Positions 6,203 through 38,755 of a stretch of DNA of 38,755 bases are shown here, piece by piece. The notes beneath the pieces were generated by a model. That model worked only from the letters and a program-made list of their open reading frames with translations. It ran no database searches and was not told where the DNA came from. The stretch spans positions 1-38,755 of the forward strand of contig NKIB01015018.1 of NCBI GenBank assembly GCA_002256025.1, given 5' to 3'. The position numbers were made by a program, and so were the translations under genes. The stretch's first letter is position 1. Every line of letters starts with the position of its first letter. The DNA is from Asterionella formosa. Lineage: Eukaryota.

Positions 6203-6279
6203 TATGGCTATAAGGAAAAAGGCAAATGATTATTTCTTGTTCACAGTTTCAAAACGGTTGGCGTTTCAAAGTTATTGCA

Positions 6280-7991
6280 ATGATGATGTTGAAGCGCTTC
6301 GTCCAATTGCTCGCTCTGACGGCTGTATCTACCCACGCCACGACTTCGCGTTCACAATCATTTGCCCCTCGCAGCCTTATTACCGAGACAAAAAGTTCTA
6401 GAGATGTAACACAAACGCGTGGAGGCGCTTTCTCTGATACTGACAAGAAGGCTATTGCTGGGGCTGCTGGCTTCATCGTTATAGACTCTGTAATTCGTAA
6501 GCTATTCAAGAGCAATGGGATAAAGTTTCCATCTCAACTTGCTGGATGTATCATGTTGCTATCAACCATGTTGATCAGTGACGTGATAAAGCCCGGTGTG
6601 GGTGATTTCATCTTCAACGCCCTGACACCGGGTGCAGCTTTCTTGGGAAAATGGTGCGTATCTTAGACCTAGTTTGTTCGCACCCACCAGTGCCGATTGT
6701 TCGTGTGAGTGTATAGAGTGCGCTAACACATTGAAATAATTCCGTGATCAAAATATTCAGGCTTTCAGTCATGTATGTACCTGGTTTGGCTATGCTCCCA
6801 TTTGCTCCTTCGGTAGGATCGGGTGTTGATGTAAGTTTGTTGATGCTCTGCCTATTCATTCTATCCAATATGATGACCGATATGATGAATGGAAACTGTT
6901 ATGTTGTTCCAAAATGGATAAACCAATGCTCACAATTGATCATTTCCACCTACCTGCTAATGTCATAGGTAGCCAAAGTTGTCGCGGTCGCCCTCTTGGG
7001 CTTTCTATTCACCTTGTCGTCGGTCGCCTTTTCTGTACTCTTTCTTCGCAAAGCAGCTGGCACTGCTATTAATGCCCCCTCCATTGCAAAGCTGACAACT
7101 ACGAAATCCGCTGTCCCGGCTGTCAAGCCATTCAAAGAGGAGACACTTCAAATGCTCTTGACAGCCAGTGTCGTCACAGGTGCCATTTCGATTGCTGCCA
7201 GCCGCCTTGGCAATGAGTATGCCACACCCTTGAATACTTTGTTCATGGGATTCTCCCCTGTAGCTGCCTACGTTTGGGGATACTGCTCTTTGCCAGCTGC
7301 CTTCACCAAGATAGTACACCCACTTATCATTGGCACTTTCTTGACTTTGGGCGTGACACAACTCTCGGGATGGGCAACTGGTACCACCTTCTTGGATATG
7401 CTAAAAACATACAAGGTAGGCTCCCTCGATATCACAAAGGCTGGAGCCGGCGATTTTTTGCTCCACATGTTGAGTCCAACTGTTATTAGTTTTGCCGTCT
7501 CAATGTATTCTCGCAAGAAACTATTGAAAGAGAATCTTTTCGTTGTCTTGATCGCGGTGCTGGTTTCTAGTGTCGGGGGTCTTTTCGGAACAGCGGCCTT
7601 TGTCAGGGCCATTCAGCTAGGTGGCAGGAATGGTACTTTGATCCGTCTATCTGTCATATCTCGCAATGTCACAACAGCCTTGGCTATGGCCATCACATCC
7701 ATTTTGGGTGGAGACATTTCGATTGCTACCTCTGTCGTTATCTCGACAGGTATCACTGGGGCCACTTATGGGCGCTCAATTTTGACGGCCATGGGAATTC
7801 ATGATCCTGTGAGCCGTGGATTGGCAATTGGGGCCTCCTCACAAGGACTTGGTGTGGCCAGTGTGATTAGCGAGCCAGATGCCTTTCCCTTTGCTGCCAT
7901 GTCCATGGTGTTGACAGCTGTGTCTGCTACAACATTAGTGTCAATCCCAGCTGTCAAGGACGCTCTTGTTAAATTGGCTACAGGTGTCTAA
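6280..7991 (+). CDS. LrgA-LrgB fusion membrane transporter, PLGG1-like (glycolate/glycerate translocator homologue), copy 1; join(6280..6653,6761..6830,6969..7991), 488 aa
   Basis: Intron 1 is 6654-6760 (GTGCGT...GCTAAC...TTCAG) and intron 2 is 6831-6968 (GTAAGT...GCTAAT...CATAG); splicing gives an open 1467-nt frame. PLGG1/LrgAB motifs: IKFPSQLAGC, KWLSVMYVPGL, VHPL, GAGD, SFAVSMY, SRNVTTALA, DPVSRGLAIGASSQGLG. Signal peptide plus Ser/Thr/Arg-rich transit-like region. Confidence 0.93.
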
Positions 7992-8068
7992 GAATAGCTA
8001 ATAATCCGTAATGCGAGGCATGGGTTCCAACAATGTCTCTGGTCTAGCTATGTATGAATCATGGATAA

Positions 8069-8360
8069 GGGGAATGGCTTAGTGTTTAGCACACCTTAGG
8101 AGGTGCAAGTTAGATTCCTGCATTTTCCACCTGTCTTTCTTTTCTGCAGTCCCTAGGGTTCCAGGGCCTGTGGCTGACAAAGGTCCCATTGTACCATATG
8201 GATGAATAGAACTGGTACTAATTGTTTCCGTTTCATGTGGGCATAAGTGCAATTATTGGAAAGCTTGAACATATTATATGATTTAATTAACATTTTTGTA
8301 TTAATCATGGATTGTTGAGCCACTGTCATGATGTTGTAACAAGTCTTGAGGGAGTTGGCC
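8069..8360 (+). mobile_element. tRNA-derived SINE-like repeat, copy B
   Basis: A-box-like TGGCTTAGTGT (8075-8085) and B-box-like AGTTAGATTCC (8108-8118); body homologous to copy A at 5256. Confidence 0.55.
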
Positions 8361-9054
8361 AATGAACTAGGAATGATTTCCTACAAATAGAGCTTGACAG
8401 GCAGCAAATGAATTATAATTGATGAGTCATTCATAAATGGCATTGTAATAATGTAGTCATTGTAGGTTAATTACTTAATCATGAAGGGGAGCTATCCAAG
8501 AATTTCTAGATCCATTATTGCAGACAACCTACAAGCAAACACTACAAGCCGCATGGCAAAGGAGCATATTTTCTGACACCACAGAATTTGCACTGCCATC
8601 CTTCAGCTCACACATATGCAGGGGCTGGTTGTATTTAGATAAAAAGCACTCCTCATAATAAAGTATGATTTAAATTTTATCATACCTTTTCTGGTACATC
8701 CACAGACTTTATTGCAACAGTTGAGATATTCTCTGGATTTGTGCACTATCCTGCTGATCAATTCCCCTTTGCTGCATATGTTACCAATTTATCAATTAGT
8801 ACTGACTCAAGTATATCATACTGTTAATAAGCATTCTTAGCTAGTTTGACTGTTTCATAGCTAGGTGATGAGTGAGCAAGACGACATGAGAGAGGAAGAA
8901 CCACACAATGCAATTTATCTGCCCTTGGCTATTTCATGATACAAACCGGATATCAACTGTTTAGTATGGCAAGTAAGAAAAGAATTGTTTTGGAGTCTCT
9001 CAATTTGAGTGGCATTTGATTAAGGACATGGAGTTGAAGGTAATGTTTCATCAA

Positions 9055-9134
9055 ATACAAAATAAATTTTAATGATGGGCAATATCGGACCTTTGGCAAG
9101 AATTTTCGAGGTGAGGATTGGAAATATACGAAAT
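9055..9134 (+). repeat. Dispersed ~80-bp repeat (second copy 38679-38755)
   Basis: atacaaaata.attttaat.atgggcaatatcggacctttggca..attttcgaggtga.gat.ggaaatatac occurs at both loci in direct orientation. Confidence 0.85.
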
Positions 9135-9199
9135 ATACTTTGTATGATGGGCAATAGTAAGCTGAAATTGACATTTATGCTTTATTTGTGGCCAGTAGG

Positions 9200-10084
9200 T
9201 AATCAAATGACACGACGATAGCTAGAGCAGGAATTGCCTCAATAATACCTTCTCGGTGGCTACTTGCCTTCTCGAATACATGTGTACTCGCAGGCAAGAG
9301 ACCACCTCGGGCGTGTGTTGCCTTCAGCAATTTTTCTCATGTATTCCAGCTTCGAGAATTTTTGGATCTGTAGGCGATTGCATTTCAGCCGGGTTTTCCA
9401 TTACTGGAAGGCGTAGGCATGGGAGCGTAGTACCTTTGACCAAGCGTGCTTTCCTTGTGGTTTCCGCACTGCATTTTCTCCCAAGGCCATGGCTCTGCCA
9501 ATGTCGATGTCTATTTTTTCCCATGCTGCCGACATTCTTTCCTTCGGCCAAGAACAGTGACTTTCAAGGAATTCGATGCGTTTGTACACATTGTATTGTC
9601 TCCAGTATGTTTTCACTGCATGAAGATATTTAGTGCTGTCCTTAGGATTTGTGGAAATGAAATTGCGATGTTTGGAGATTGCCATGTCCTCTTGTTTTCC
9701 TCCGAAAAGTAAGTTTGCGTCCAGATCTAAGTAGAGGACTTGGTGATCTGCTATAATGCCATGATAGAATGGTAGGATACCCCCTTTCTTTGTAGAAAAC
9801 TGGATATGTTGGCTTCCCAAAATGTAATCAATGGTTTTGGAGCCCCGATCATATGTGACTGGTTCCTCCTCTTCAGGATGTAATCCTTTAAGAAGATTAG
9901 AGAGGCCGCATTCGCTGAGAATGGCTTCAGTCCCTTGAGATGATTGGCCAAGTTCCTCGTTTGCGTCCATCATGAGGAGGATCTCATATCCTTTTAAATG
10001 GCTATCCTGAACAAACTTAATGATGTCAAGAATATACTGGCGAAAAGGATTTGGATTGATGCAGCCCTGGGTGGACATGATCAT
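9200..10084 (-). mobile_element. Non-LTR retrotransposon fragment (Ambal-like), APE endonuclease C-terminal part
   Basis: ORF 10084-9401: EILLMMDANE...PVTYDRGSKTIDYILGS...IADHQVLYLD, matching the APE DxN, TY..IDY and SDH motifs. Collinear with the + strand element at 17250-17900. Left boundary approximate. Confidence 0.85.
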
Positions 10085-12064
10085 GTGTTCCTGTATTAAC
10101 CAGCAATGATGTCTTCCTCATTGAGTCCCAGATGTTCTTGGTGACAGGTAGTACCATTTGTTTCATGTTCCATGAGCTTGTTGGAAACTTGCAATTGATA
10201 TTCAGTGACAAAGGGAGAACAAATGGAAAGAAACACGACAAATGATAACAAGACTGAACAAAGCAAAGCACTGAAGGTAATCTTTGACCATCAGCATAAA
10301 TCCAATGCCCATGTCTGAACATGAAGAGGCAATTTGTCAGAATTGCCAAAAGCTTGCCAAGGTGAATACTGTCTACAAGTTTCAACCAAAAAACAAGGAG
10401 AAGAGAAAGATATCTACAGGTTTCAACAAAAAGTACAAGAAGGATTTGATCCATTTGAAAGTAATTTAAAATGATAGAATTGATAAGAGAGTCTTGGAAT
10501 TGAGACCATTGATTTTCGTGTCGACAAGAGAATGCCTTGCATCAATCAAGGATAGAAGGGTGATGTTATGGAGAATGGGTCCTCCTTTATTGTTTGCTGA
10601 AACAGGAACATGTAGCTCACCATATTTGATGTACCACTATAATTTCTGTTTGTAAACATGTTTGGAGGAAGGAAAAAATAAAGGCAATTAAATCTTGAAT
10701 GCATTGCATTTTGGTCTCCACTATTGGCCATACATACTTTGATATACTTGTTGCGAAATACACAAAGGTGGACAAAAGCAATGTAGGTACGTGTTCTCAA
10801 CCACATATGATTCATAATGGTGCTATATAATTGAACTTACCAATCGTTTCCACTTACTAATGTATGTTATGAATGATGTTCTAGCATTAATTATCTTCCT
10901 TAGTAGTTTTGAGGTTCATCAAACTTTGTCATGGTTCATTCCTCCTTCTCAGACTTAATGTCCAGTGCATTTTGCTTTGTAATTTCAAGATGTTTGCTGG
11001 TGCTTGCCTTGACAACCAATGTTAAATCGCTCAAAACTAAATTGGAATGAGTGCCCTCGAGGAACCATCAACTCATTCTATAAGTCCAAATGTTATTGTG
11101 AACCAGCAGTGAACAAGCAATCTACAAGATCACAGTAGCTAAGGAACAAGTATAAGAGAAGGTTAGTGATGGCCATTGTAATGGCCATTGTGAAGGCAAA
11201 AAAGCATTTTTGAGCGATAAATATTTAAAAGATGATCAGTCAAGGCCTGCTTATCCCTATCCAATGGATATCTGTCTAATCTTTGCACTTGGATTTATTT
11301 ATGTCAATTAAATATAGCTGTTGAAAATATTAATTATTTCAAGGCCATCACCAAGACAAGAGATTTGACACTTTTGTAAACAGGTTTTGAGGAGCCATAA
11401 TGATGAGCTTCTCGAGCTTTGGATGGCTTCTCTGCAGTAGTAGATAAAATTGTGGTTCTAAATAATGATAACAATCAGCATTATAAATGCTGCCATCCCC
11501 AGTTGAGATTGCAGACATTTCTGGTGTTGCTCCTTTGCAAGGAAGAAAATCATTTATCCATGGGAATTCTAGAGTACCGGTAATAGTTCAGAGGAATAGT
11601 TTATGATTTTATGCAGTTACAATGTGCAAATGAATTATTGCTGTTCCATTTTTAATGTAACCACAGTACATGACCGTATACTCCCTCACAAAATGTACTG
11701 GTACCACCTAAAAACTGGGAGTATACAAACTTTCACTTTTGTACTGATAGTCATAACAAAAAGGAGTAATCACACGGTTTGAGACAAATATTTGTAATAT
11801 TATAGATCTGTATTAGACAAAGTTATTCCTGTGCATATAAGGAACAGCATTGCTCATACTTGAACACTGCAATCTCGTACCAGTTCTTTAGTTATAATAG
11901 CCCAAAATTGGCTGTCGACGCTTGGTCCAAATCAGTTTTACCCCATTGAGCCTGCATGACTTTTTCAACACATAGGAGAAGCTGAAGCTATGTAAATAAT
12001 TAGCTTGTTTCAAGACTTTTCCGCATCATTTCTACTATGGCATGTTTGCGCCATTGTAATTAAG

Positions 12065-14100
12065 TGTCAAGATTTAGTACTGTATGCATATTAGTTCAGT
12101 CGAATTAATCAATCTTGAATAGTATTCCAGCCAAAATCCCGTATTGAAATGCTGTGAGAATTTGAACAGCATCGATTGCCAAGAACTATATCAGCAAACC
12201 AAGGTAAATATTCTAATGGAGAATGTTCTAAGTAATCAATATTTCAATGAAGTAAAGGTATATATGCAATGCAGATAGCATTGAATATTCACGATTGTTG
12301 TACGAAGTGAGTGGAGTTGAGTTGTCAGTTGAGAATTGAATGCCTAACAACGCAATGAATATCTATATACAAATTTGGGAAGAGAGCCTTAACAATTGAT
12401 CATGAAAACGATTACAAGATAGATCAAATAAGCTCACAATAAGGTGGGATTAGAACAGAAGGTTAAGTACATTGAGCTTGTCTAGAAAGAGCTAGAATTG
12501 CAGTCAGACTGCAGAAGAATTTAACATGCTTGCTAGCAGATCAACTTCGTTTTACAACATGACTGAAGACAAAGGTGAGACCATTTACCTTGTGAAGTTT
12601 GATGGCGAGGACGCCAATTGGCATGAGTGGAGTGTGAAGACAATGGCACTACTAGCCAAGGCAAGAGGATTCAAGAATGCCTACATGAAGGATACCAATC
12701 CATGCAGCGACGCTGTCTACAAAACTACAGACAAAGACGATGTCAAGAAGATCTACGAGATGAATGATCGCGCATACCAGCTCCTAGTTATAAGTTGCAC
12801 TGGGATCGCGTTCGGTTTGGTTAACCAAGCCAAGACAAAGAATCATCAAGACGGCGATGCATTCCTTGCTTGGACCTACCTCAAGGCTCGCTATGTTCCT
12901 AATGCTACAAGTGACCTAATCCCACGGTCAGGACAGTTCAACAAGTGCATCTGTGAGGGGAAGACGCAAGACCCAGACGAATGGTTCATTCAACTCGAGT
13001 TGTTGAGGAATCGAATGGCGACGATTGATTCTGCCTACGAAAAGAAGGATCTCGAGATGACTGCCCACATACTTGACAAACTACCTAAGGAGTACTCAGA
13101 AGTGGTAACCATGGTTGAGGCTATGCCCTCCCTGACACTAGAAGACCTTAAGGCCAAGACACGCGCGTTCTTCAAAAGCAAGTTTAAGAACGAAAAGTCG
13201 GATGGCGAACTTGCTCTTGTTGCCTTTGGAACTAAGTTCAAAGGACTCTGCCGCTCTTGTGGCAAGCAAGGACACAAGGCAGCCGATTGTTGAGTCCAGA
13301 ACAAGACGCACGGCGACGGAAACAGTCCTCCTCTGAAAGGCGTCAAGTGTTTCAATTTTTTGAATGCCAGATATATTGCAAAAGATTGCCCCAAACCCAA
13401 ACGAGAACGTACAACAACGAAACAAGAGACCGGCATGTTTGTTGGCATGTGTACGATTGACTACGAAGACATCGAAGCAAACGAAAAGAAAACAAGATAT
13501 GAATGACAAGTACAACGAGAACGACGATAAAGAGTGGACTTTCGTCGGTATTTGCGAGGAAATTATTGATGATTGTTATGTAAAAATTTATTATAAAGAG
13601 TTTTGTGCCTCTGCTGTTGCTTCTCGCTCTATTGCCCTACAGGAGAATTGGCTCGCTGATACTAGAGCTACTGCCCATATCACAATGAGTGACGTCGGTA
13701 TGACAAATGTACGCCCAGTCAGTGTCACAGTCGTCGTCGGCGATGGCTCGGAAATTAAATGCACAAAGCGCGGTGACATCATGTTCACCAACGGAGAAAA
13801 GACCATGACATTGAAGGATGTCCTGTAAACGCCTAAGTTTCACAAGAACATCGTCAGTTTGGGCGTCCTAATCCGTGACGGTTTTGACCTTTGAGTCACG
13901 GGTTGTACAATGATAGTTAAGAAAGGTCGCGGAGGACATATTTCATTTAACAGAGAGACCAATGGAGTTCTCTATTATTTTAAAGCAAGTCGCGCGAGTT
14001 ATGCCAATGTCGTATCCATGGTTATTGCCCCATTGTCCCAGGGGGCCGATAGTACCAAAAACTAGTCTAAAAACACCCATATGCTGTCAGTTCCTGAAAT
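12065..14100 (+). mobile_element. Ty1/Copia LTR retrotransposon, 3'-truncated (putative 5' LTR, gag, protease)
   Basis: Gag ORF 12526-13293 (KFDGEDANWHEWSVK...GDAFLAW...DPDEWF...ILDKLPKEYS, zinc knuckle CRSCGKQGHKAADC), a second decayed knuckle (..IAKDCP), protease WLADTRATAHIT, then LKDVL*TPKFHKNIVSLG...GVLY. Candidate LTR 12065-12394 (TGTCAAG...CTTAACA). No integrase, RT or 3' LTR seen. Confidence 0.88.
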
Positions 14101-14433
14101 TAAGATCCTTGTGTGATGGTTTCGACGCAATGTAGATTTCCCGGCACCACAAACAAGACAAGCCCTACTTACCCGCTTGGGAGAGACCTTACCACACCGA
14201 GGAGACCAGCAGGCGCTGGCAGAAGAGATCACAACTGCTGTGGTTCTTGCTGCGACTCCCATCCCCCCTTTTCTCCCCCCTTGGCCTGGTGCGGTTGACA
14301 ATGGTGCTGAACACAAGGGGAAAATTGATATTTCAGCTTGCTTCGGATATTACTGGCGGTGCTGGCTGGCAAGGAAGAATATGATGATGAAGGGTGGCTG
14401 AGAGGAGGAATATGAAGGAAGCGACGAAACAAG

Positions 14434-14504
14434 GAGGCGGAGGCAGAGGCGGAGGCGGAAGCGGAAGCAGAGTGAGGTGAGGTGAGGTGAGGTGAGGTGA
14501 GGTG
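14434..14504. repeat. Compound G-rich microsatellite (GAGGCR/GAAGCR)n + (GTGAG)6
   Basis: Hexamer array 14434-14469, then six GTGAG units at 14472-14501. Confidence 0.95.
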
Positions 14505-14852
14505 TAGGCGAAGGTGGAGAAGCAAACAAGCAATCAACACATTCTTGCTTGGCTGACATCTGTCATAGTAGTAATACCAAACCAGTAGCCTGATGTAAGC
14601 AGAACACTAATTAGTGACGAACGTAAATAATGCTTGAATAAATCTATATCAAACCATCATCAAAACGAATGAAAGTAAGATTATTGACACAAAAACTTGA
14701 AATAATATTTGAGACTTTTTGCCAAGTATAAAGGCGAGTTTAATAAGAACTTTTGTAGTACTAATATAGAAATCACAAAAATCCTAGTACTCACGCTATA
14801 CGTACATCCGGGTCCCGACGATCGACAGATTGACCAAACCACCCACTCCATC

Positions 14853-17800
14853 ATGGGGAAAACGAATGCAAAGGTGAGCCGCTTCAGCTCAGCCAACTGC
14901 AACAATCCAAACGAACGGTGATCAAACCAGACAGGAAAAAGGGGAAAACAAGGGATGAGGAACTGATGGAGAAACTTGAATTGGAGGAACAAAAGGCCAA
15001 TGCAGTGTTTGCGGCTTCAAATGATGAAATCGCAGTTGTAGACTTCATGGATACCATATCAAATGCCTTGGAGAAAACGGAAAGGTCCAAGTCAGTGTTT
15101 TCAGCCAGGAGGAAATCCTCTCAAGCCACCCTTCCATTCATCCCCACCATGAAAGCAGTCAGAGAGACGGAGGAAGAACTAGAACAGGATACAATCATTG
15201 CAGAAACGCTCACCATGGAAGAAGCCTTTGATACACCAAATGCTGAGTTTTCAGACAAGGATAAAATTATAGCAGAAGCTGAACAAACCACAGGCATACC
15301 ATTACTAGACATGGACAACATAGCAGTAGAAAACAACATACTTGCTGAGGATCAGAGAGATGCCAACACTCTGAAAGCTCAGCCAACCTCAAACGACTCA
15401 GCAACATGCAACCAATAAGATGCAGCTCAGTGACAGGCAGCATCAATCCGGCACCAAATGCTAGGTTGGAAGGCAAAGATCAGAGCAATCCTTCCGCCAA
15501 ATCATGATCTCCCTTCCCAAACCAAGCTCTTTATGAAGAAGCTTGATGAGACCCTAAAACAAATGACAAGTGTTGATCCTTTGATCCATCTCTTACCATT
15601 AGAAAACAACACAGATGATATTCCCGCTGGTAAGATTGTCAAACTTCTCTCAGGCAACCAAGCAGCATACATCAAAATCAAGGAAGTACCAAAAAAGAAA
15701 TACATGGATGCATTTCTACACTTCAAATCTCAATCCAATTATAGTAAAATCAAGCTCCAAATCCTACCATGATTCCTACAGGAAAAGAGAATCTACATCG
15801 ACGAATACAAATTGGAAAGACATCGACGAATACAAATTGGAAAGTTTGGATGACGTCCAAGTTGGTTGGCTATTTGGCAAAAGCAGTTTTGTGGTCTCAG
15901 AGAATGGCACCAAGAAGTGGCTAGTAGAGGATCTATTGGGATCAGATATTAGATCAAAGATGGATTTCCAAGTGCGCAGCCAAGGTACAAATTTGCGCAA
16001 TTTGGAATAGAACTCAAAACATTTGCTTTTGTAATAAGTGCCAGCAGAGAGACAGCAGAAGACATCTACCAAACCATGTAAACGTTTTACCAATAAGATC
16101 TGACTAATGCCTCTGCTTCGTAGGCTACCAAGCCTTCAACTTTTCTGCAGCTCAAGACCACAAAGAGGCAGCGCAAAACTACATGCAGCAGAAATGGTTG
16201 ACAACAAATATTCGCACAAAGCTAATGTCATGCTTCACAGATATTGACACACAGTTGAGGATCCAAGGTACCAACACTACTTTTAGACAATTTATGCTGG
16301 AGACAAAGATGACACTGGCAAATATCTAATGTGCGATGCTGATTTTACCGCATCAGGTCCCAATACATAAGAGAAGATGCCAAATGGAAACGCTCCAGGA
16401 AAGGACTTAAACAAGAGAAAAAGCTTGCACATCATGCAAAAAACCGAAGCAGTCCCTCCACGTCAGGTTCAGAAAAATCGACGTCAGAAAGTTCATCAGA
16501 CAACAGCTCCGCTTCTTCGTCCTCCTCATTGGGTTTATCGCTGCAGGAGGGCAGAAAAACTTCACCAGCATTCAAAAATCAAAAATCTTTGTTAAATCGA
16601 CTCTTGGTTGGCGAGATAGATTCAGACTCATCAGAAGAGAACATGCTGGACTCCAACAGCTCAAAAGATCCCAAAGTAAAAGAGAAAACTGCAAACCCAC
16701 CATTGGATTCAAAAAGGAAAGTGAACACAGGATCAAGCAACTCAACCCAACACAAAAAGAAAAAATGTCAGAGTTAGCTGTGGTACCTCAACTTAGCTAG
16801 TAGACCATCCATAGACTTAGCAGCCAGGAGAACCGGAAAAGATTTCCGAAATCGAGAAAGTGACCATCCAATGTACTCAGCCTCACGCCATACAAGGACA
16901 ACCATCAACAGGGTCCAAAGAGGCAGAAATTCGAAGGGAGTGGGAAATCCAACATAATATCAGAAAATGAGGCACATCAGAGGGGCACATACCCATCAAA
17001 CCAATACCACCATACACCAACAATACCTTCAAGCGCACACATCAAAGCAGACTAGAAATTCACATGAGAAAGCCTGATCCAACAGGAATGGGAAGATGGA
17101 GCTATCAGCTTTTGAAAAGAAAATGGAATAGTGATAACCATCATCACAGGCTCAGCCTATATGGTATCTCAAACATCAATGCCTCAACAGGGCGAGAGCA
17201 CCACATTTCACTGAGAATATATGATGATGTCCAAAGGGGTAGTTAAGATGCCCAATCCACGGAAACAGTTTGTTTCTGATCTCATTTCATTTATCCAAGA
17301 ACATCACATGAGAGGCAACGAAATCCTGCTAATACTAGATGCAAACGAAGAGGAGGGATCAGCACAAATGGGAATCACTGCAATACTTTGAGAATGCTCA
17401 TTGTCCAATTTACACAAGGATCTACACCCAGACCTTTCCAGCCCGGTGACATATGATAGAGGCTAAAAAAAGATTATATCTTGGGAAAGCGCTCACTGCC
17501 AAGCTGCATCCAAGAATCGAGGAGGAATCCTCCCATTTTACGCACAAATCCAGGCAGAACACAGGGCATTTTATATAGACTTTGATGCAAAGGCATTATT
17601 TGGCGGAATAAAAAAATTGAAACTGTAGATGCAAGATCATTCATGTCAACCAAGCCAGAAGAGTGCAAAAAATACCTTCATGCAGTGAAACAATACTGGA
17701 AAACCCACAAGATGCCGCCAAGGATTGATGCGCGCCACAAAATGACAGGACCAACAGCCGCCATACAAGCTGAATGGGGATAAAATCGACCGGGACATTG

Positions 17801-20800
17801 GCAGAGCCATGTCCCTTGGAGACAGGGCAGCAAAGAGACCAATGGGAACATATGTGTGGTCTAAAAAGCTCCGTCAAGCTGCATATGAATGCCAATACTG
17901 GCGAAAACAATTAAAAATGCATGCATACAATATAAATTCTAGCAAGAACCTAGAGGAAATACGCCAGATTGCGGGGTTAAAATCATTGGACACAGGAAAT
18001 CTAAGCTTAGTGGAATTAAAAGACAGGGTCAAAGGCAGATCGATGGCTCTTTGAACAATACAAAAACATTCAGAGCCAAGAATGGGAACAAGATTTACAA
18101 AATGTTCAAGGCAAAACATCCCAAATCGCACGAAAGGAAACAAAAAGACTGAAATCAATTCTTCAAGCAGAAAAATCAAAGGAGGGCTTTAAACGGCTAA
18201 AGCAAATATTCAATCCTCAACAAGGAGGTGCCCTATCAAAGGTACATGTCCCTGTTTATGACAGTGCTGGAGTTGCCACTTCATGGAAAACAGAATTTGA
18301 ATCAGATGCCCTTGAAACCGCCCTGCTGGAACATTGCTGAAGGCAATATAGAAAAGCCTCTAGTGCGCAGTTTGGCCATGGACCTTTGCGAGACTTACTG
18401 GGCTTTCACGGAATGACAGAGGCAGCAAACCAGATACTAGAGGGGACGTTGTTTCAAATCTTGATGAGGAATGTTTCCCAGGAGTCAGACAATTTATAGC
18501 AGCAATGGCGGTACCAGATGAGCTTAAAGGTAAAACAAAAATGAACACAGAAATCAATGAGGATGATTTCAGGAAGAGAATAAAAGAATAGAAAGAAACA
18601 AGATCTACATCACCAAGCAACCAACACCTCGGTCACTACAAAGTGCCAGGATTTAGAGCTCACTCAAGGTTATGCCAAAATGATTAACATGCCAGTAAAA
18701 AGAGGGTTCTCTCCATCACGATGGCAAAATGCAACCTCAGTAATGATAGAAAAAGACAAAGGAAATCCGAAGATCAACAGGCTTTGTATTATCCACCTCT
18801 TTGAAGCTGATTATAACCTTTTCCTCAAACTGATATGGGGATGCCACGCACATGGTGGGATTAGCAGAGGCACATGGAAGTCTGGGTGAAGAAATGCAGG
18901 GATCACGGAAACGCAGAAGCACCATGGATGTATTATTCAAGAAAACATTGAGCTTTGATTTGTGTAGACAACAAAGAACAAACATGGCTCTTTTCGACAC
19001 TGATGCTGCAAGCTTTTATGATAGAATCCTAGTTAGCTAACTTGGCCATGATCTGCGCAAGAAGGCTGGGAGCTCCATCAGAGGCGGGTTTTGCACAGCA
19101 CTCCGAGACACTTCGACTGATGAAATATACTGTCAAAACTGTCTACAGGACCTCGGCTGGGCATTATAGCAGCACTGCCACCGAGCCTTTAGCAGGCACA
19201 GGACAAGAAAGTGGAGCATCTCCAGCGGTTTGTCTGTCTATTTGTGCCGTACTTTTGTTGGCCTACAAAACACATGCACCAAAGGGAATGACATTCTCTG
19301 ACCCAACCGTGGCATTGGTTTATGGTCCCTCAACATTGGGGGAGCTGAATCTAGTTGGCATTAGAATCAAACAAGGAATCAAAAGACGAAAAATCGAAGT
19401 TGATGGATATCTCACTATGATTCACCCAGCTTGAGTCTGACAGGGACGAGGAATTACCGGGGAAGATTCCAATTAGCTATACCACATCAACATGGAAAAC
19501 TCAACTCAGGAACTTCATGGGAATGCACAATCTCTGCATCGAATGTACAAGAGGATGGCAACCCAGGACACAATGTGTACATGATCAGATGATCATGTCT
19601 CTCTTCCTCAACAAAGGCATATCAGATTATCTTTTTTTTCAACCTAGTGCTAACACGTGCAGGATGTATCTCCAAGTCACCTCACTAGCAGATACATTCG
19701 ACCAGAAATAGTGGAGTGCAATCAAATTGCACAACGAAGCTCACAGTGGACCTGGCCACAACAGCCAAAACGAACGCTCCAATAACAAGACAACTGGAAA
19801 GAAGCAATTACTTAACACCTAATCACTCAAGGATCCAAAAAACACCTAAGGCTCCGTCAACCATTAGGGAGGAGGTAGACAGGCACTCCTACTAGCCACT
19901 GGAAATATTATTATGATCAAACTACAAAAAGATCATGGAAACATCAGGAGATAGACGCAAAAGTATGGACAGTATAAGAAAATGAACCGGTATTGGGAGC
20001 TCCAAGATTTAACTTATCCAATGGCACTCCGTCAAATGTGGGGCCCCCAAAAGATCATTGCGTTCCCTGTGATGTTAGTCCTTGGGGATCAATTACCTTC
20101 AGATCCTGCGTCATGACATCAAAACCAGCTCAAGCAAGCAAACCGAGAACTTTTAGGGAACATGTTAAAGGGTTGGACTCCCACAAACAAAGGCTACTTC
20201 GAAATCTCACTTTGACAAATATGATGGAGGCTAGACTTTGCCGCCATCTTTTAGTACTTGGCTTACCATGAGCCATGCAAGATTGCGACTGATTTGGCTC
20301 AATGCAGCAGGACAAAAGAAGTTCCTTCGAGTGGACAATGAGGCTGAAACGCACAAACACACTGATCTCAGAAAAAAGCGCACAGTGCTCTGGTCCTGTT
20401 GATGGCAACCCTGTCCAAAACAGCTCCACTAGGGTTCTTCATCTCCTGGAGCAAGCACTGAGGACGACCCCCAGAAAATGCTGATATTGTTTCACTCCTA
20501 ACAGATATTTCCAAGGAACTATACATTGACATCAAGATACAGTGGATTAAAGCAGCCCATCAAGACAATGCTGCTAGAACACAGCGTTTGACTTCAATAG
20601 CATTGATGAATGTTCAAGCAGACAGCTTAGCTTCCCAATATCTGCAAGGACAACCAACCACAGCCACAGGAGGTCCAAGAAGGGCATCGAGACACTTCCC
20701 CACTATGTATGCAAGCTTACTAATCGAAGACAGGAGAATACACAGTTTCACCAGCGCACAGATCCGCTCCACATTAAAGGTTATCATTACAAAACTTATT

Positions 20801-22040
20801 TCAGGAAGAAACACAAGATAGACCATATGGCAGAATCATACATTGACTGGCACAGTCTGAAATCAGCCATCAAAAAACAAACAACAGGGATGAAAACAAT
20901 GATAACAATGATAACAAAGTAGATACATCATGGCTGGTTCCCCACAGGTTCCCAAAGGAAACTTATTCAGCACAATGGGGAGGACTCCTGCCCACAATGC
21001 AAGTGCCAAGAAACCAATGAACACATCATCACATCAGAAGTCCCAAAGCACGGTATAATACGGGAATCAGGCTGTCAGAAATGGCAAATTCTATCCAGAA
21101 AACACAAACAGGCACAAAAGTGACACCAGTAAAGTTAGATAATATCAGACATTTGATGTCAAACAATGAAAAGCCTTTCATACCCCACTTTGTACCTCGT
21201 ACTTCGGAAAAAACAAAACAGATCATCTATCAATCACTTAAACATGATCAGGGCGCATTGGGCAAAGAACTCACTCTTCGGGGGTATTGGTAAAGCGTTG
21301 GAACAAGGCAGAAAAGAGTTCCGACATCGACGACAACATGGCACCAGGAAAATTACATGAATTGTGGGTACCTTCAGCTATTACACATCTATGGAGGGTT
21401 GTCCACAGATCATGGACAGACAGAAACGAAATTCTCCATCGCAACGTCAACCTCAACATAGCACAATCTGATCTCAATCAGCAAATTACACAATACTACC
21501 AGCATAAAGAAAAAATATGCAGACGGGATTCCCATCTCTTCTCAATCGCACTACTACAGGATCTGCTTGACTCTCGACTGAACCGAAAAATTAGGTTTCT
21601 GGAAAGAGCAAAATTCATATTTCATGCATCCAAACAGCAGCCACAAAAGGGACAGGAATCCATATACACGTTTTTCTCAAGCAATACAGTACAAGAGACA
21701 AGAACTTGACACCAACAATCCGTCATAATTCTCGTGTGTGGCCTACAAGAATCTACAAACAATCCACACTAAAAATCCAATTCCCAAGCTGACATGCACC
21801 ACTCAGGTACATGGAAAGGACCCAAGATCGCAGCTACCAAACGTTTTTTTACCAATACTTCTACTCGAGGGAGTGACCACCAACACATCTTCCACCGCCC
21901 CACCTCACTATGGGCCATGGAGCGCAATAACGCCAAATCTAGAAATAGGCTAGAATAACGGAGCTATAAAAATGATTGATATAGCTACATGAAATAATAT
22001 TTGATTTAAAAGGCAAACACATTATTATTTAAGGTTAAAA
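14853..22040 (+). mobile_element. Decayed near-full-length non-LTR retrotransposon (Ambal-like: ORF1; ORF2 APE-RT-RNase H-Cys/His finger)
   Basis: ORF1 pieces 14853-16370 (VDPLIHLLP, VQVGWLFGKS). APE (DPTGMGRWS, EILLILDANE, PVTYDRG). RT (SPSRWQNATSVMIEKDKGNPKINRLCIIHLFEADYNL; DAASFYDRI; GTGQESGASPA). RNase H-like (CSGPVDGNPVQNSSTR; QWIKAAHQD...NVQADSLA). CPQCKCQETNEHI at ~20990. Many stops and frameshifts; ends approximate. Confidence 0.88.
15795..15844 (+). repeat. Perfect 25-bp tandem duplication
   Basis: acatcgacgaatacaaattggaaag x2, which frameshifts ORF1 of the non-LTR element. Confidence 0.95.
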
Positions 22041-22715: not shown

Positions 22716-24427
22716 ATGATGATGTTGAAGCGCTTCGTCCAATTGCTCGCTCTGACGGCTGTATCTACCCACGCCACGACTTCGCGTTCACAATCATTTG
22801 CCCCTCGCAGCCTTATTACCGAGACAAAAAGTGCTAGAGATGTAACACAAACGCGTGGAGGCGCTTTCTCTGATACTGACAAGAAGGCTATTGCTGGGGC
22901 TGCTGGCTTCATCGTTATAGACTCTGTAATTCGTAAGCTATTCAAGAGCAATGGGATAAAGTTTCCATCTCAACTTGCTGGATGTATCATGTTGCTATCA
23001 ACCATGTTGATCAGTGACGTGATAAAGCCCGGTGTGGGTGATTTCATCTTCAACGCCCTGACACCGGGTGCAGCTTTCTTGGGAAAATGGTGCGTATCTT
23101 AGACCTAGTTTGTTCGCACCCACCAGTGCAGATTGTTCGTGTGAGTGTATAGAGTGCGCTAACCCATTGAAATAATTCCGTGATCAAAATATTCAGGCTT
23201 TCAGTCATGTTTGTCCCTGGTTTGGCTATGCTCCCATTTGCTCCTTCGGTAGGATCGGGTGTTGATGTAAGTTTGTTGATGTTCTGCCTATTCATTCTAT
23301 CCAATATGATGACCGATATGATGAATGGAAACTGTTATGTTGTTCCAAAATGGATAAACCAATGCTCACAATTGATCATTTCCACCTACCTGCTAATGTC
23401 ATAGGTAGCCAAAGTTGTCGCGGTCGCCCTCTTGGGCTTTCTATTCACCTTGTCGTCGGTCGCCTTTTCTGTACTCTTTCTTCGCAAAGCAGCTGGCACT
23501 GCTATTAATGCCCCCTCCATTGCAAAGCTGACAACTACGAAATCCGCTGTCCCGGCTGTCAAGCCATTCAAAGAGGAGACACTGCAAATGCTCTTGACAG
23601 CCAGTGTCGTCACAGGTGCCATTTCGATTGCTGCCCGCCGCCTTGGCAATGAGTATGCCACACCCTTGAATACTTTGTTCATGGGATTCTCCACTGTAGC
23701 TGCCTACGTTTGGGGAGCCTGCTCTTTGCCAGCTGCCTTCACCAAGATAGTACACCCACTTATCATTGGCACTTTCTTGACTTTGGGCGTGACACAACTC
23801 TCGGGATGGGCAACTGGTACCACCTTCTTGGATATGCTAAAAACATACAAGGTAGGGTCCCTCGATATCACAAAGGCTGGAGCCGGCGATATCTTGCTCC
23901 ACATGTTGGGTCCAGCTGTCATTAGTTTTGCCGTCTCAATGTATTCTCGCAAGAAACTATTGAAAGAGAATCTTTTCGTTGTCTTGATCGCGGTGCTGGT
24001 TTCTAGTGTCGGGGGTCTTTTCGGAACAGCGGCCTTTGTTAGGGCCATTCAGCTAGGTGGCAGGAATGGCGCCTTGGTCCGTCTATCTGTCCTATCTCGC
24101 AATGTCACAACAGCCTTGGCTATGGCCATCACATCCATTTTGGGTGGAGACATTTCGATTGCTACCTCTGTCGTTATCATGACAGGTGTCACTGGGGCCA
24201 CTTATGGGCGCTCAATTTTGACGGCCATGGGAATTCATGATCCTGTGAGCCGTGGATTGGCAATTGGGGCCTCCTCACAAGGACTTGGTGTGGCCAGTGT
24301 GATTAGCGAGCCAGATGCCTTTCCCTTTGCTGCCATGTCCATGGTGTTGACGGCTATGTCTGCTACAACATTAGTGTCAATCCCAGCTGTCAAGGACGCT
24401 CTTGTTAAATTGGCTACAGGTGTCTAA
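22716..24427 (+). CDS. LrgA-LrgB fusion membrane transporter, PLGG1-like, copy 2; join(22716..23089,23197..23266,23405..24427), 488 aa
   Basis: Same exon/intron structure as copy 1 at a constant offset of 16436 with no indels. ACCATG start context. Retains GAGDILLHMLGPAVISFAVSMY (LrgB LGP motif). Confidence 0.94.
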
Positions 24428-24590
24428 GAATAGCTAATAATCCGTAATGCGAGACATAGTTTACTGTTCACGCCTGTTATCTATTTATTTATGCATCATG
24501 CTTATTCATTGAGCCCTTTTGTGAAAGTTGGAGCACAAGTTGATTCGTTTACCACATGTGAGAAAAATTCTAGAAGAGAATACAGCTTAA

Positions 24591-26079: not shown

Positions 26080-27200
26080 GACATGGCTGCAGGAAAATGT
26101 GTTTTGCAAAATTTTTGTTAGTAACTTTGTTGACGAATATATTAAACAAACAGTTCGTGACTTTGTAACTTACCTACAAAAATAGTGCCTACCACATTAC
26201 AATGGAAGAAAAATGTGAATTCTTCTTGGCCTAGTGAGAAACCTCAGCAAAGCAACCGTTGATTGTCATGTCATCGGCGGCCTACAGGTTGGCAAGCGCT
26301 GTCAAAATAACATGTTTGACCTGCCAGAAACAGGTTGCTAAACTCGAATCTGCAAGAAGCAACAATGATGAAGATGAAGACAATGGTGAGATAAATAAAA
26401 GAGAAGCGAGACACATTGCAATCAACCAGCAGTTTATTCTTGGTTGTCAGGAATCTGGATTGGGACCTGGTGACGCAGACATTGTTTGTTCCGCAATGAA
26501 CATGTTACCTCTTGCAGTTCAATTTTGGTCAAAACAAGGTAATTTCGCTGCCGTAAAGGAGAAAGTTGGCGAGGCAGAAGTAGCAACCACAGCTCTTGCT
26601 ATGGAAGATCGGGAAGCAATATATCAAACACTGAATGGGCTGACAAAGTACACACAAGATTTCCAATGGTGGAATAATCTCTGAACTAAATATGCTGCAT
26701 CTCACCGTTAGTTATGATATGGGCTGCTGACAGCAGCGATCCAATGGGAATAAGTACAACTCCGTAAGTGGACATGCATTCTGTATTGGTGGCTACACAA
26801 GAAAGATAGTAGATTATCGAGTAAAATCAATGGTCTTTTTAATGCGTGCAACAGAGCTTCCCGATACAAGTAACCAAGCAAGCTTCACAGCTGCTGCAAG
26901 AATCTCGTAACTGGAATTTCCAAGGCAATAAAACCAGATGCGGGTGTGGAAATGATGGTTGATGCCATGACCAAATACATTGTTATCTACTCTACAATCA
27001 TCTGTGATGATGATTGATTCTACAATTCGAGCTGTCTCCAAATGGTCTTATAAAAAATTATCAAATCTACAGTCTGACTTTCAATGGCCAAAAACGTAAA
27101 TGGTAAAAAGCCCGACAAAGGATGCCTTTTACTAAATGATGTTCCAGAACCAGGTTTCTTTCCGATTCATCGCACAGGATCCGCATCCTTCTCCACCCTG
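26080..27200 (+). mobile_element. Mutator-like/Kolobok-type DDE transposase relic (N-terminal and catalytic part)
   Basis: LASAVKITCLTC...AINQQFILGCQESGLG...; LTVSYDMGC*QQRSNGNKYNSVSGHAFCIGGYTRKIVDY; HSCCKN..G.SKA...AGVEM; TIICDDD/DSTIRA; DVPEPGF/SDSSHR. These match PF20700-type motifs as recalled. Confidence 0.8.
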
Positions 27201-32299: not shown

Positions 32300-33745
32300 T
32301 TTATTAAGCGCTTTAGAACTAAACTATTGCTGGGAGGGTAGCTCGCATAGCGCTTCCTGGTGTTGCCAGCCTTGTTGTTATAAATTACTTACCAACCCAG
32401 CCAGTATCAACCCAACAAATGTGGTAACTTTGGGCGCTGAAACACGGGGAAAGGGTGGGTACAATCCCTTCAGTGGAAGTCGAACAGTTTTGTTGTGCGG
32501 GTGTTGCGCTATGGTTCTTGTGCTGTGGATAACATCAGTCTTGTACAGAGATTAACTCCCTAAGAATAACGTGGATAGCTTGGTTTGGACTTGAATCTGA
32601 AAATATTGTGGAATCACTTCACGGGAATTCGGATCAGAGTACTTTTGCTGTGCTGTTAAGATTAGGAAGTTTATCAGGCAAATCTCTGTTGTTCCTTTGT
32701 CTTTTGCGATAGTATTTCTTGGTGCTTTATTGCCCGATTTCCTTCCTTTAGAAGCGATTCGCTCAAACTCCTCATCTTGTTTTTGTGCTGCTATAACAAT
32801 GTTGCTTCTATTTTTGAGGGGTAGCATATTCTGTTGTTGTCCTTTTTGCCCATGCAAGTTCTGACTCCTCTGCTTTAACAAAATTCTTCAATGGAGTGAC
32901 AATAGCAGGAATTATCCCCAATCTTTTCACACACCAAGTACTTGCCTTTTCCATAGGGTTCACTATTGGATCAGAATCCTTGTTTGCGGATTTGGCTCTA
33001 TTTATGTTGTTTGCTTTCATTTCTGGTTGCTCTCCTTTGATTTTCATATAGTACTCTTGAGTCTTGGTATGATCTGTTGTATAATATACCATCATGTCTT
33101 GATTACTGTAGTTTTGTTCTTTCAATATCATCAAAATGCGAAATCTTCTTGAATTGTCAGCTGTTGCTCCTTTCCTTTCCTTTCCTTTAGAGTAGCGCCA
33201 TTTTTCTCTGGCTTTGGCAAGTTTTTCTTCGCACAGCGCCGTTCTTGGAGACAGCGCAATTTCCACATTTTTTCATTCATAGTTAGATTTGTTAATTGAG
33301 CGAGTGGGGGACTGTATTTTCCATGATTTTCCTGTTATTTCTTCTATTCCTTTCATAATCTTCATAATGTTGCATCATGTTGCCGATGATGCCAGTTTGC
33401 TTTGTCTTATTGTCACGAACCGCTAAGACTGTTTGCTTTTCCGACGATTCCCCAAAGGGGTCCCGGAAACCTTCCTAGCGTGGTGACTACCAGATGCTCC
33501 CTTGCTGCTCTGTTTTTGTTCTAGACTTTAGACTTTTCCTTTCATAATCTTCATAATGTTGCATCATGTTGCCGATGATGCCAGTTGATTTGTCTTATTG
33601 TCATGAACCGCTGAGACTGTTTGCTTTTCCGACGATTCCCCAAAGGGGTCCCGGAAACCTTCCTAGCGTGGTGACTACCAGCTGCTCCCTTGCTGCTCTG
33701 TTTTTGTTCTAGACGTTAGAAACGTTTATCGAAAAATTCTTATCG
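32300..33745 (-). mobile_element. Unclassified insertion with a decayed Lys/Arg-rich minus-strand reading frame
   Basis: Separates two collinear parts of the pogo-like frame. Contains ORF pieces 33266-32808 and 32881-32552 and the 189-bp tandem duplication. No family motif recognised; boundaries approximate. Confidence 0.45.
33347..33720. repeat. 189-bp-period tandem duplication
   Basis: 33347-33532 and 33536-33720 differ by only a few substitutions and a 1-nt indel. Confidence 0.95.
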
Positions 33746-38678: not shown

Positions 38679-38755
38679 ATACAAAATATATTTTAATTAT
38701 GGGCAATATCGGACCTTTGGCAATTTTCGAGGTGAAGATAGGAAATATACAAAAT
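38679..38755 (+). repeat. Dispersed repeat, copy of 9055-9134 (runs off the right edge)
   Basis: Same sequence as 9055-9134 in direct orientation. Confidence 0.85.

Follow-up and report, generated by a model that had tools for sequence, protein, structure and literature searches.

The window analyzed here, a 38,755-nt stretch of DNA from the Asterionella formosa genome assembly GCA_002256025.1 (contig NKIB01015018.1, positions 1 to 38,755 of the forward strand), carries two nearly identical LrgB/PLGG1-like genes, copy 1 at 6280..7991 and copy 2 at 22716..24427, both on the + strand. The gene models of both copies come from three-frame translation. Copy 1, the diverging member of the pair, consists of 488 codons in three exons (6280-6653, 6761-6830, and 6969-7991), separated by introns of 107 nt (6654-6760) and 138 nt (6831-6968) with GT..AG borders; copy 2, offset by +16436, has the same exon/intron structure and retains the family-consensus residues. 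A self-BLAST of the window, together with a base-by-base comparison, revealed a single long repeat, in which 6280..8021 matches 22716..24457 on the + strand over 1742 nt with no gaps and 29 mismatches (1.7%). This block begins exactly at the ATG and ends 30 nt past the TAA stop codon, and the flanks of the two copies show no residual similarity over 1500 nt on each side (scores of 24 and 27, compared to shuffle means of 24.4 and 25.4). Homology of this kind, confined to one unit between unrelated flanks, is expected under concerted evolution. The mismatches are packed into short, replacement-rich islands within the best-conserved protein motifs, and most of the derived states are found in copy 1. 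The explanation of this pattern that we tentatively place first is that an old gene pair has been homogenized by gene conversion, with conversion-resistant islands in the diverging copy 1.

LrgB/PLGG1 proteins transport photorespiratory and related small carboxylates, and plant PLGG1 is said, after Pick et al. in 2013, to function as the plastidic glycolate/glycerate translocator. Judging from their sequences, both genes are predicted to be diatom LrgB/PLGG1-type organellar carboxylate-transporter genes. Exon 3 of copy 1 matches the Pfam LrgB domain (PF04172) with an E value of 1e-31 (110.5 bits) and that of copy 2 with an E value of 7e-33 (114.3 bits), the cut-off being 25; in the database protein P0001, which served as a full-length stand-in, the same domain scores 112.2 bits over residues 255-484. 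This domain, on residues 245-474 of the window proteins, is common to them, the plant plastidic glycolate/glycerate translocator PLGG1/AtLrgB, and bacterial LrgB/CidB. However, the NCBIfam matches that would link them to LrgB/CidB are weak, at 58-84 bits, far under the equivalog cut-offs of 250-267 bits. The nearest named homologues are diatom proteins from Cylindrotheca closterium (61% identity) and Mayamaea (56%), the former of which carries the UniRef name “Plastidal glycolate/glycerate translocator.” In the AlphaFold model of P0001 (predicted local distance difference test [pLDDT] score of 86.3, predicted template modeling [pTM] score of 0.81), helices 63-88, 95-113, 117-134, 137-145, and 156-188 precede the LrgB part. 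This modeled multi-helix N-terminal membrane part would be reminiscent of the plant PLGG1-type LrgA-LrgB fusion, yet no Pfam match to LrgA was found at E values up to 1 in the N-terminal part of either copy or of P0001.

The N termini of the two copies are the same up to residue 39 and include a hydrophobic stretch followed by SQS-FAP (6355-6369, residues 26-30), which we take to resemble the diatom bipartite plastid-targeting cleavage motif. One study reports mitochondrial localization predictions for the PLGG1 homologues of Phaeodactylum (PMC9546453). A sequence search of the PDB at E values up to 1 found no solved structure for the family, and a Foldseek comparison of the model with the PDB gave nothing at an E value of 1e-3 or better; its best rows were the elevator-type carriers GltTk, CitS, NhaP, and ASBT, with template modeling (TM) scores of 0.36 or less, too weak to use. 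Literature searches returned no structure paper for PLGG1 and cryo-electron microscopy, and no title on paralogue divergence for PLGG1 in diatoms, among the matches listed.

The original prediction, which was made from the letters of the window, had counted 25 coding substitutions in 21 codons, 14 of them with replacements and 7 silent, and the recount gave the same figures. The 14 replacements (copy 1/copy 2: S40A, Y130F, S226R, P245T, Y253A, F311I, S317G, T319A, T371A, I373V, I378L, S407M, I410V, and V466M) were all recovered, as were the four two-hit codons (tac/gcc, ttt/atc, act/gcc, and tcg/atg), the motif changes LSPT/LGPA and STGI/MTGV, the 3 differences in 245 intron positions, and the location of 4 of the 7 silent codons no more than two codons from a replacement. 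Coding divergence is, as had been stated, not below intron divergence (25/1464 compared to 3/245, P = 0.79). The proposed clustering was significant at short range in permutation tests (20,000 permutations). Adjacent differences are at most 10 nt apart in 11 cases, compared to 4.3 expected (P = 0.0007), and at most 3 nt apart in 5 cases, compared to 1.4 expected (P = 0.009). The strongest clustering signal comes from the silent changes, 6 of the 9 being located within 5 nt of a replacement, compared to 0.94 expected (P = 1e-4); after two same-codon cases are dropped, the count is 4 of 7 (P = 0.002). As a control, the 18 sites in the gene at which both copies differ from the environmental contig L001 (see below) are not clustered, with 1 close pair compared to 1.8 expected (P = 0.87). 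The two identical tracts of ∼300 nt that had been reported do exist on the + strand, one at 6398..6693 (296 nt, from late exon 1 into intron 1) and the other at 6847..7147 (301 nt, running from intron 2 into exon 3). However, the longer one is not significant by itself (P = 0.12); the second-longest has a P value of 0.0025, calculated post hoc. Six of the sites at which L001 stands apart from both copies fall within the longer tract.

The islands were defined post hoc, after the data were seen, and are all given on the + strand. Island A (7257..7282) comprises P245T and Y253A, the latter a tandem TA/GC double, and copy 1 has the derived state at both sites. Island B (7455..7484), with F311I, S317G, T319A, and two silent changes, has 5 differences in 30 nt and sits in the GAGDxLLxxLGPxV motif, adjoining the invariant G307, D310, L316, and P318 (window numbering), where local conservation is at the 90th percentile. 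Island C (7634..7656), with T371A, I373V, I378L, and two silent changes, has 5 differences in 23 nt and sits in the VRLSVLSRNVTTA motif. Island D (7743..7752) consists of the tandem double S407M and of I410V, which flank an invariant Gly; the derived states here are S407 in copy 1 and V410 in copy 2. Two mini-islands complete the set: Y130F with the silent V131 (6775..6779), where Y is the derived state, and the silent T464 with V466M (7916..7920), where M is derived in copy 2. The islands are located in the best-conserved motifs of the protein, namely, GAGDxLLxxLGPxV, VRLSVLSRNVTTA, and the TGxxGA helix. In the AlphaFold model of P0001, island B would map to several short, broken helices in succession, island C to a short helix plus the loop ahead of another short helix, and islands A and D to long helices.

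The changes were polarized by aligning exon 3 of both copies with 120 homologues, of which five near-identical ones were set aside, leaving 115. Copy 2 has the family state at sites 130 (F, in 39 of 42 homologues aligned there), 245 (T, 112/115), 253 (A, 101/115), 311 (I, 50/115), 317 (G, 112/115), 371 (A, 36/115), 373 (V, 82/115), and 378 (L, 111/115), as well as at site 407, which is hydrophobic in 115/115 homologues, with S never seen. At site 319, its A is found in 25/115 homologues (S in 82, T in 8), including the four closest relatives. At site 226, the nearer state is that of copy 1, which also has the family state at sites 410 (I) and 466 (V); site 40 lies in the unalignable presequence. 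Of the 13 replacement sites that can be polarized, 10 are therefore derived in copy 1 (binomial P = 0.09), and the outgroups bear out the earlier statement that it was copy 1 that lost a conserved Gly and gained a Pro.

This polarity is also what would be seen if constraint had been relaxed on a redundant copy 1, copy 2 performing the function while the sheltered copy 1 gathers nearly neutral or slightly harmful changes, with the clusters arising from multi-nucleotide or repair-associated mutation and not from selection, an explanation that we regard as possible but rather doubtful. The same alternative had been raised in the original prediction, and the polarization serves it at least as well as it serves conversion-resistant islands. 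The copy-1 changes T245P, G317S, and L378I strike columns that are 97% conserved. Columns hit in copy 1 are as conserved as random ones (mean conservation of 0.74, compared to 0.68; P = 0.23), with 3 of 9 hits in columns that are at least 90% conserved, whereas ordinary orthologue substitutions avoid such columns (means of 0.45-0.52, with 1-10% in columns at least 90% conserved). The lower Pfam score of copy 1 and the transposon-rich, gene-poor neighborhood of the pair, whose members lie 16.4 kb apart on the same strand, also fit relaxed constraint. However, independent neutral mutation would pack neither 10 of the 17 copy-1-private changes into 30 and 23 nt (islands B and C) nor silent changes next to replacements. 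In addition, copy 1 has no stop, frameshift, or lost splice site, with the 488-codon frame open and GT..AG at both introns, although intactness of the frame and of the four splice sites is weak evidence at 1% divergence.

The count of differences by the NG86 method gave Nd of 16 on 1086 sites and Sd of 9 on 378 sites, so that the ratio of nonsynonymous to synonymous divergence (dN/dS) is 0.61. The claim that the differences are mostly nonsynonymous holds as a count but not as a sign of positive selection, the ratio being below the neutral expectation. There is nevertheless a replacement excess over the background of the gene: the 18 differences of both copies from L001 include 3 nonsynonymous and 12 silent ones (omega near 0.09), compared to 16 and 9 between the paralogues (Fisher P = 0.0098). 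Silent divergence is raised ∼20-fold inside the islands (6/30, ∼0.20) relative to the rest of the gene (3/348, 0.0086). Hits that are blind to conservation, together with a dN/dS of 0.61, fit both relaxation and a re-tuning of functional motifs.

A metagenome scan yielded 10 loci. Only one of these, L001, a 1608-nt environmental contig, is close (98%); L002 to L005 (52-61%) are too far for silent-site work, and L006 to L010, weak matches of 37 residues, were left out. L001 has 18 nt of 5' flank that match those of copy 1. Over the same 1590 nt, the two copies differ from each other at 26 sites and copy 1 differs from L001 at 35, a comparison in which L001 is possibly chimeric and its orthology is judged from the 18-nt flank. 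Both window copies agree against L001 at 18 sites; at the sites where they disagree, L001 is in the copy-2 state at 17 and in the copy-1 state at 9. Among silent and intron differences, 7 are private to copy 1, 4 are private to copy 2, and 15 separate both copies from L001. Old duplication without exchange was rejected, as it would need two window branches each as long as that of L001 (clock test, P = 0.009). At silent sites outside the islands, the copies differ at 3/348 positions, compared to 12/345 between them and L001 (P = 0.02), whereas their difference within the islands, 6/30, is above the L001 level (P = 0.0015).

The copies being closer to each other than to L001 could reflect either exchange or youth. 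A young duplication of the gene body alone, without conversion, might have been drawn from the other allele of a heterozygous diploid, the differences being sorted polymorphism plus a few new mutations. The low overall divergence (1.7%), introns as alike as exons, and a silent-site tree that unites the two copies against L001 agree with such an origin; the transposons around both copies could have mediated the capture, and the near-identical mosaics found in other samples could be segregating alleles. However, a breakpoint exactly at the ATG is improbable by chance. Silent divergence of 0.2 in the islands far exceeds the between-strain value of 0.035, and alleles under the strong constraint of this gene (3 nonsynonymous and 12 silent differences) would be less replacement-rich. 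The site patterns also conflict with each other: V197 is derived and present in both copies but not in L001, whereas Y130 and S407 are derived and present in copy 1 and L001 but not in copy 2. Such incompatible patterns point to exchange; a duplication that postdates the split from L001 would mean that copy 2 had regained the family state both at site 130 and in the S407 codon, the latter by two base changes. Finally, the public runs X1 (DNA) and X19 contain contigs that end at the ATG or at ATG+30. Such breaks are expected where two different upstream flanks lead into a single gene body, and they suggest that both loci are present in other strains. On this evidence a young duplication appears improbable. 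Concerted evolution of an older pair is the probable history, although everything here leans on one possibly chimeric contig.

In the reading placed first, the pair would be older than it appears, and interlocus gene conversion, which we infer from L001 and the contig breaks, would hold the gene body, including the introns, at ∼99% identity, while the promoters and flanks would share nothing. Copy 2 would preserve the family-consensus protein, and copy 1 would gather nearly all derived replacements in short islands (7257-7282, 7455-7484, 7634-7656, and 7743-7752) in the most conserved LrgB motifs. Selection would remove conversion tracts that overwrite the islands, probably the likeliest cause of the raised silent divergence within them. 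Copy 1 would then represent a functionally shifted isoform that keeps the N-terminal targeting peptide and has a promoter of its own. Confined homology, raised silent divergence in the islands, and the replacement excess speak for the earlier proposal that the islands are kept against conversion; its further step to two different transporters is one that we infer rather than observe, dN/dS being 0.61. A full neofunctionalization of copy 1, in which its substrate path would have been re-tuned in re-entrant-like motifs (GDF..LSPT, NGTLIRLSVIS, and ISTGI) and kept distinct against ongoing conversion, is somewhat unlikely.

Several observations weigh against selected islands in a converting pair. 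At 0.61, dN/dS is not above 1, nor does it depart significantly from 1 (P = 0.25), as relaxed constraint would have it; it is ∼0.7 on the copy-1 branch (10 nonsynonymous and 5 silent changes). The copy-1-private changes include 13 GC>AT and 2 AT>GC (P = 0.007), another feature that favors relaxed constraint and has the look of unfiltered recent mutation. Copy-1 states are rare or absent among the 115 homologues (P245, 0; Y253, 0; S317, 1; I378, 2; S407, 0), and losing a 97%-conserved Gly that precedes an invariant Pro resembles damage no less than re-tuning. All six replacements of islands B and C fall on one lineage, and the island sites were placed at the level of secondary structure. A Sawyer-type test with L001 as the third sequence was marginal (longest concordant run, 6 of 44 sites; P = 0.07), as was the number of runs in the same comparison (16, compared to 22.3 expected; P = 0.034). 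Within 1.4 kb, L001 flips nine times between the states of the two copies. L001, the database proteins P0001 to P0006, and the Logan contigs could all be chimeras of the two paralogues that arose by bubble popping, so that no haplotype phase outside the window is secure. Lastly, in both L001 and P0001 a 5' leader of the copy-1 type precedes copy-2-type, consensus islands A to C; this combination, which relaxed constraint would accommodate, makes the islands young if taken at face value.

The mutation spectrum differs between parts of copy 1. In islands B and C, 8 of 10 changes are C:G>T:A transitions on alternating strands with no strand coordination, compared to 1 transition (T>C) and 6 transversions among the other 7 copy-1-private changes (P = 0.015). 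Multi-nucleotide mutation events are rich in transversions. The transition-rich, not strand-coordinated islands B and C are unlike known clustered-mutation signatures, which counts against a mutational origin of these clusters on a relaxed copy 1; their transitions yield conservative swaps (Ala/Thr, Val/Ile, and Gly/Ser) and third-position silent changes, and their spectrum more closely resembles ordinary long-term divergence than a mutational burst. In contrast, the tandem doubles (GC/TA at 7281-2, the one at 7743-4, and a GG>CC in L001) look like single multi-nucleotide events, whose occurrence in this gene is a point in favor of relaxed constraint. The GG>CC change in L001, at window positions 7627-7628 (R368T, with T also found in P0001 to P0004), indicates that such events occur in the gene outside the paralogue comparison.

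Other sources of the changes were considered but gained no support. No donor of the copy-1 island haplotypes was found among the 115 homologues, the best of which, P0025, has 3 scattered states. Templated patching from inside the window is unsupported: there is no match of at least 13 nt to any copy-1 segment spanning two variant sites, and the one 12-mer is at chance level. CpG deamination or a process similar to repeat-induced point mutation (RIP) does not account for the changes, as CpG is the context of only 2 among the 17 changes private to copy 1, and these changes share no dinucleotide context. Copy 1 has a hydroxyl residue (S, T, or Y) at 8 of 14 sites, but this does not qualify as a functional trend, since it results largely from first-position G>A changes (Ala>Thr and Gly>Ser); the gain of Ser/Thr in copy 1 follows from the GC>AT bias.

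Public runs that match the window are mostly freshwater and lake metagenomes, and copy-1 states recur in several of the data sets. L001 has the copy-1 states Y130 (and the rest of that mini-island), S407, and I410; those of island D are also found in P0003, those of island C in P0006, and those of islands B and C in an X1 DNA contig (record 3). Y253 (TAC) is present in the X14 and X19 RNA contigs, P0003, and P0006. This recurrence across several independent data sets does not favor the mere decay of copy 1. The database proteins P0001 to P0004 and P0006, which are 98-99% identical to the window proteins, mix copy-1 and copy-2 states; phase in these proteins and in L001 is not trusted because short-read assemblers yield such mosaics from 98%-identical paralogues. 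Other relatives, P0005, P0007, and P0008, are 82% and 79% identical. The 5' leader of P0001 matches the region upstream of copy 1 (6250-6279) for 15 nt (FKVIA) and then diverges, and its coding states are nearly all of the copy-2 type; P0001 is either an assembly chimera or from a strain whose copy 1 lacks the islands.

It is very improbable that some of the differences, or one of the copies, are assembly or sequencing artefacts. Such an artefact could account for P245, as the C at 7257 is found only in the window, with A at this position in X1, X14, X19, and L001 and T245 in P0001 to P0004 and P0006, so that every other data set covering the site contradicts it; P245 is either private to the window or an error. 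However, the differences are substitutions only, with zero indels, on one contig with distinct flanks. Furthermore, X1 contigs cover 23 of the sites and have the copy-1 state at 17 of them, L001, P0003, and P0006 confirm copy-1 states at further sites, and the copy-2 states agree with the family consensus.

RNA contigs from public metatranscriptomes confirm the splice joints of both introns in both copies; these contigs attest to presence and not to level, and RNA libraries can contain DNA. In a copy-1-type contig from X14 (record 16; 1396 nt, depth 78), both introns have been spliced out, so that the lack of expression once envisaged for copy 1 does not hold, and the relaxed-constraint explanation has to accommodate a spliced transcript. 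In exon 3, this contig has 5 differences to copy 1, compared to 22 between the two copies; 3 of the 5 (at 7257, 7421, and 7604) are copy-2 states. Spliced X13 RNA contigs with a depth of ∼540 map to copy 2. Some stretches of copy 2 were left uncovered by X1 and X14, and some of copy 1 by X13, from which nothing is concluded. An X19 contig runs from the start of exon 3 to 205 nt into the unique 3' flank of copy 1, ending at 8226, with 40 differences. The X14 contig ends at 8017, where it runs into an Illumina adapter, 4 nt before the end of the block at 8021; a short 3' untranslated region whose end coincides with the block end near 8017-8021 is possible. A retro-copy of unspliced RNA was considered on account of this proximity, but the 5' leader of P0001 lies outside the block and the X19 contig reaches 8226.

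Divergence islands under gene conversion are an already known phenomenon, which the pattern in the window matches; they reportedly persist under interlocus conversion in RHCE/RHD and opsin-type cases and in the models of Innan and Teshima. In the GOT1 paralogues of Tigriopus, divergence islands can mark regions selected for new functions, as stated in the abstract of PMC3728101. The two systems are alike in having near-identical paralogues, short replacement-rich islands, and raised silent divergence. They differ in that conversion is deduced here from one environmental contig and contig breaks, the islands are 10-30 nt long, and all replacements in the main two are on one copy. Long-term concerted pairs described in mammals (PMC2720389) and for yeast histones (PMC4700949) have in common with the pair in the window paralogues closer than orthologues, homogeneity limited to the gene, and diverged flanks. 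Those studies, however, drew on several complete genomes with known orthology, whereas the orthology of L001 comes from an 18-nt flank.

If the islands are truly selected, some ten residues would be worth mutating in any LrgB/PLGG1 member, and the pair would provide a clean case, from a protist, of divergence under gene conversion. If neofunctionalization is true, the islands would mark specificity-determining residues in a family without a solved structure and almost without mapped functional sites, and a swap of three islands would switch substrate or kinetics. If copy 1 merely decays, the pair would be an ordinary young-looking duplicate, and replacement-rich, multi-nucleotide patterns between near-identical paralogues would be no evidence of positive selection.

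The DNA between the two copies contains remnants of a copia-type retroelement (12496..13828, + strand), with matches to Pfam Retrotran_gag_4 (9e-5) and Retrotran_gag_2 (1e-4), both below the curated cut-offs, and to the Pol beta-barrel domain Pol_BBD (1.4e-7). Self-BLAST of the window found no pair of long terminal repeats for these remnants. On their 3' side, the region from 14000 to 22000 shows 8 kb of strongly positive AT skew (0.19-0.30). At 26238-26684, downstream of copy 2, there is a fragment of a Mutator-like transposase (PF20700, 3.3e-5, a match that falls short of the curated cut-off). One X1 DNA contig and one contig from the X19 RNA run join 11697/11698 to 22413, skipping ∼10.7 kb that correspond approximately to the retroelement-bearing spacer, with sides of only 22 nt at the joint. 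The copies may accordingly be only ∼5.7 kb apart in some strains, or the joint may be a repeat artefact, given such short sides.

The depth of the X1 contigs is very high over 8484-9725 and 11589-14072, which suggests dispersed repeats in these regions. Several shorter repeats were also detected: a direct repeat of 177-190 nt at 1582-1771 and 2504-2693 (922 nt apart, 89-92% identical), an 80-nt repeat (90%) at 9055-9134 and 38679-38755, which extends to the end of the window, and a tandem pair of 189-nt units at 33344-33720 that are 96% identical.

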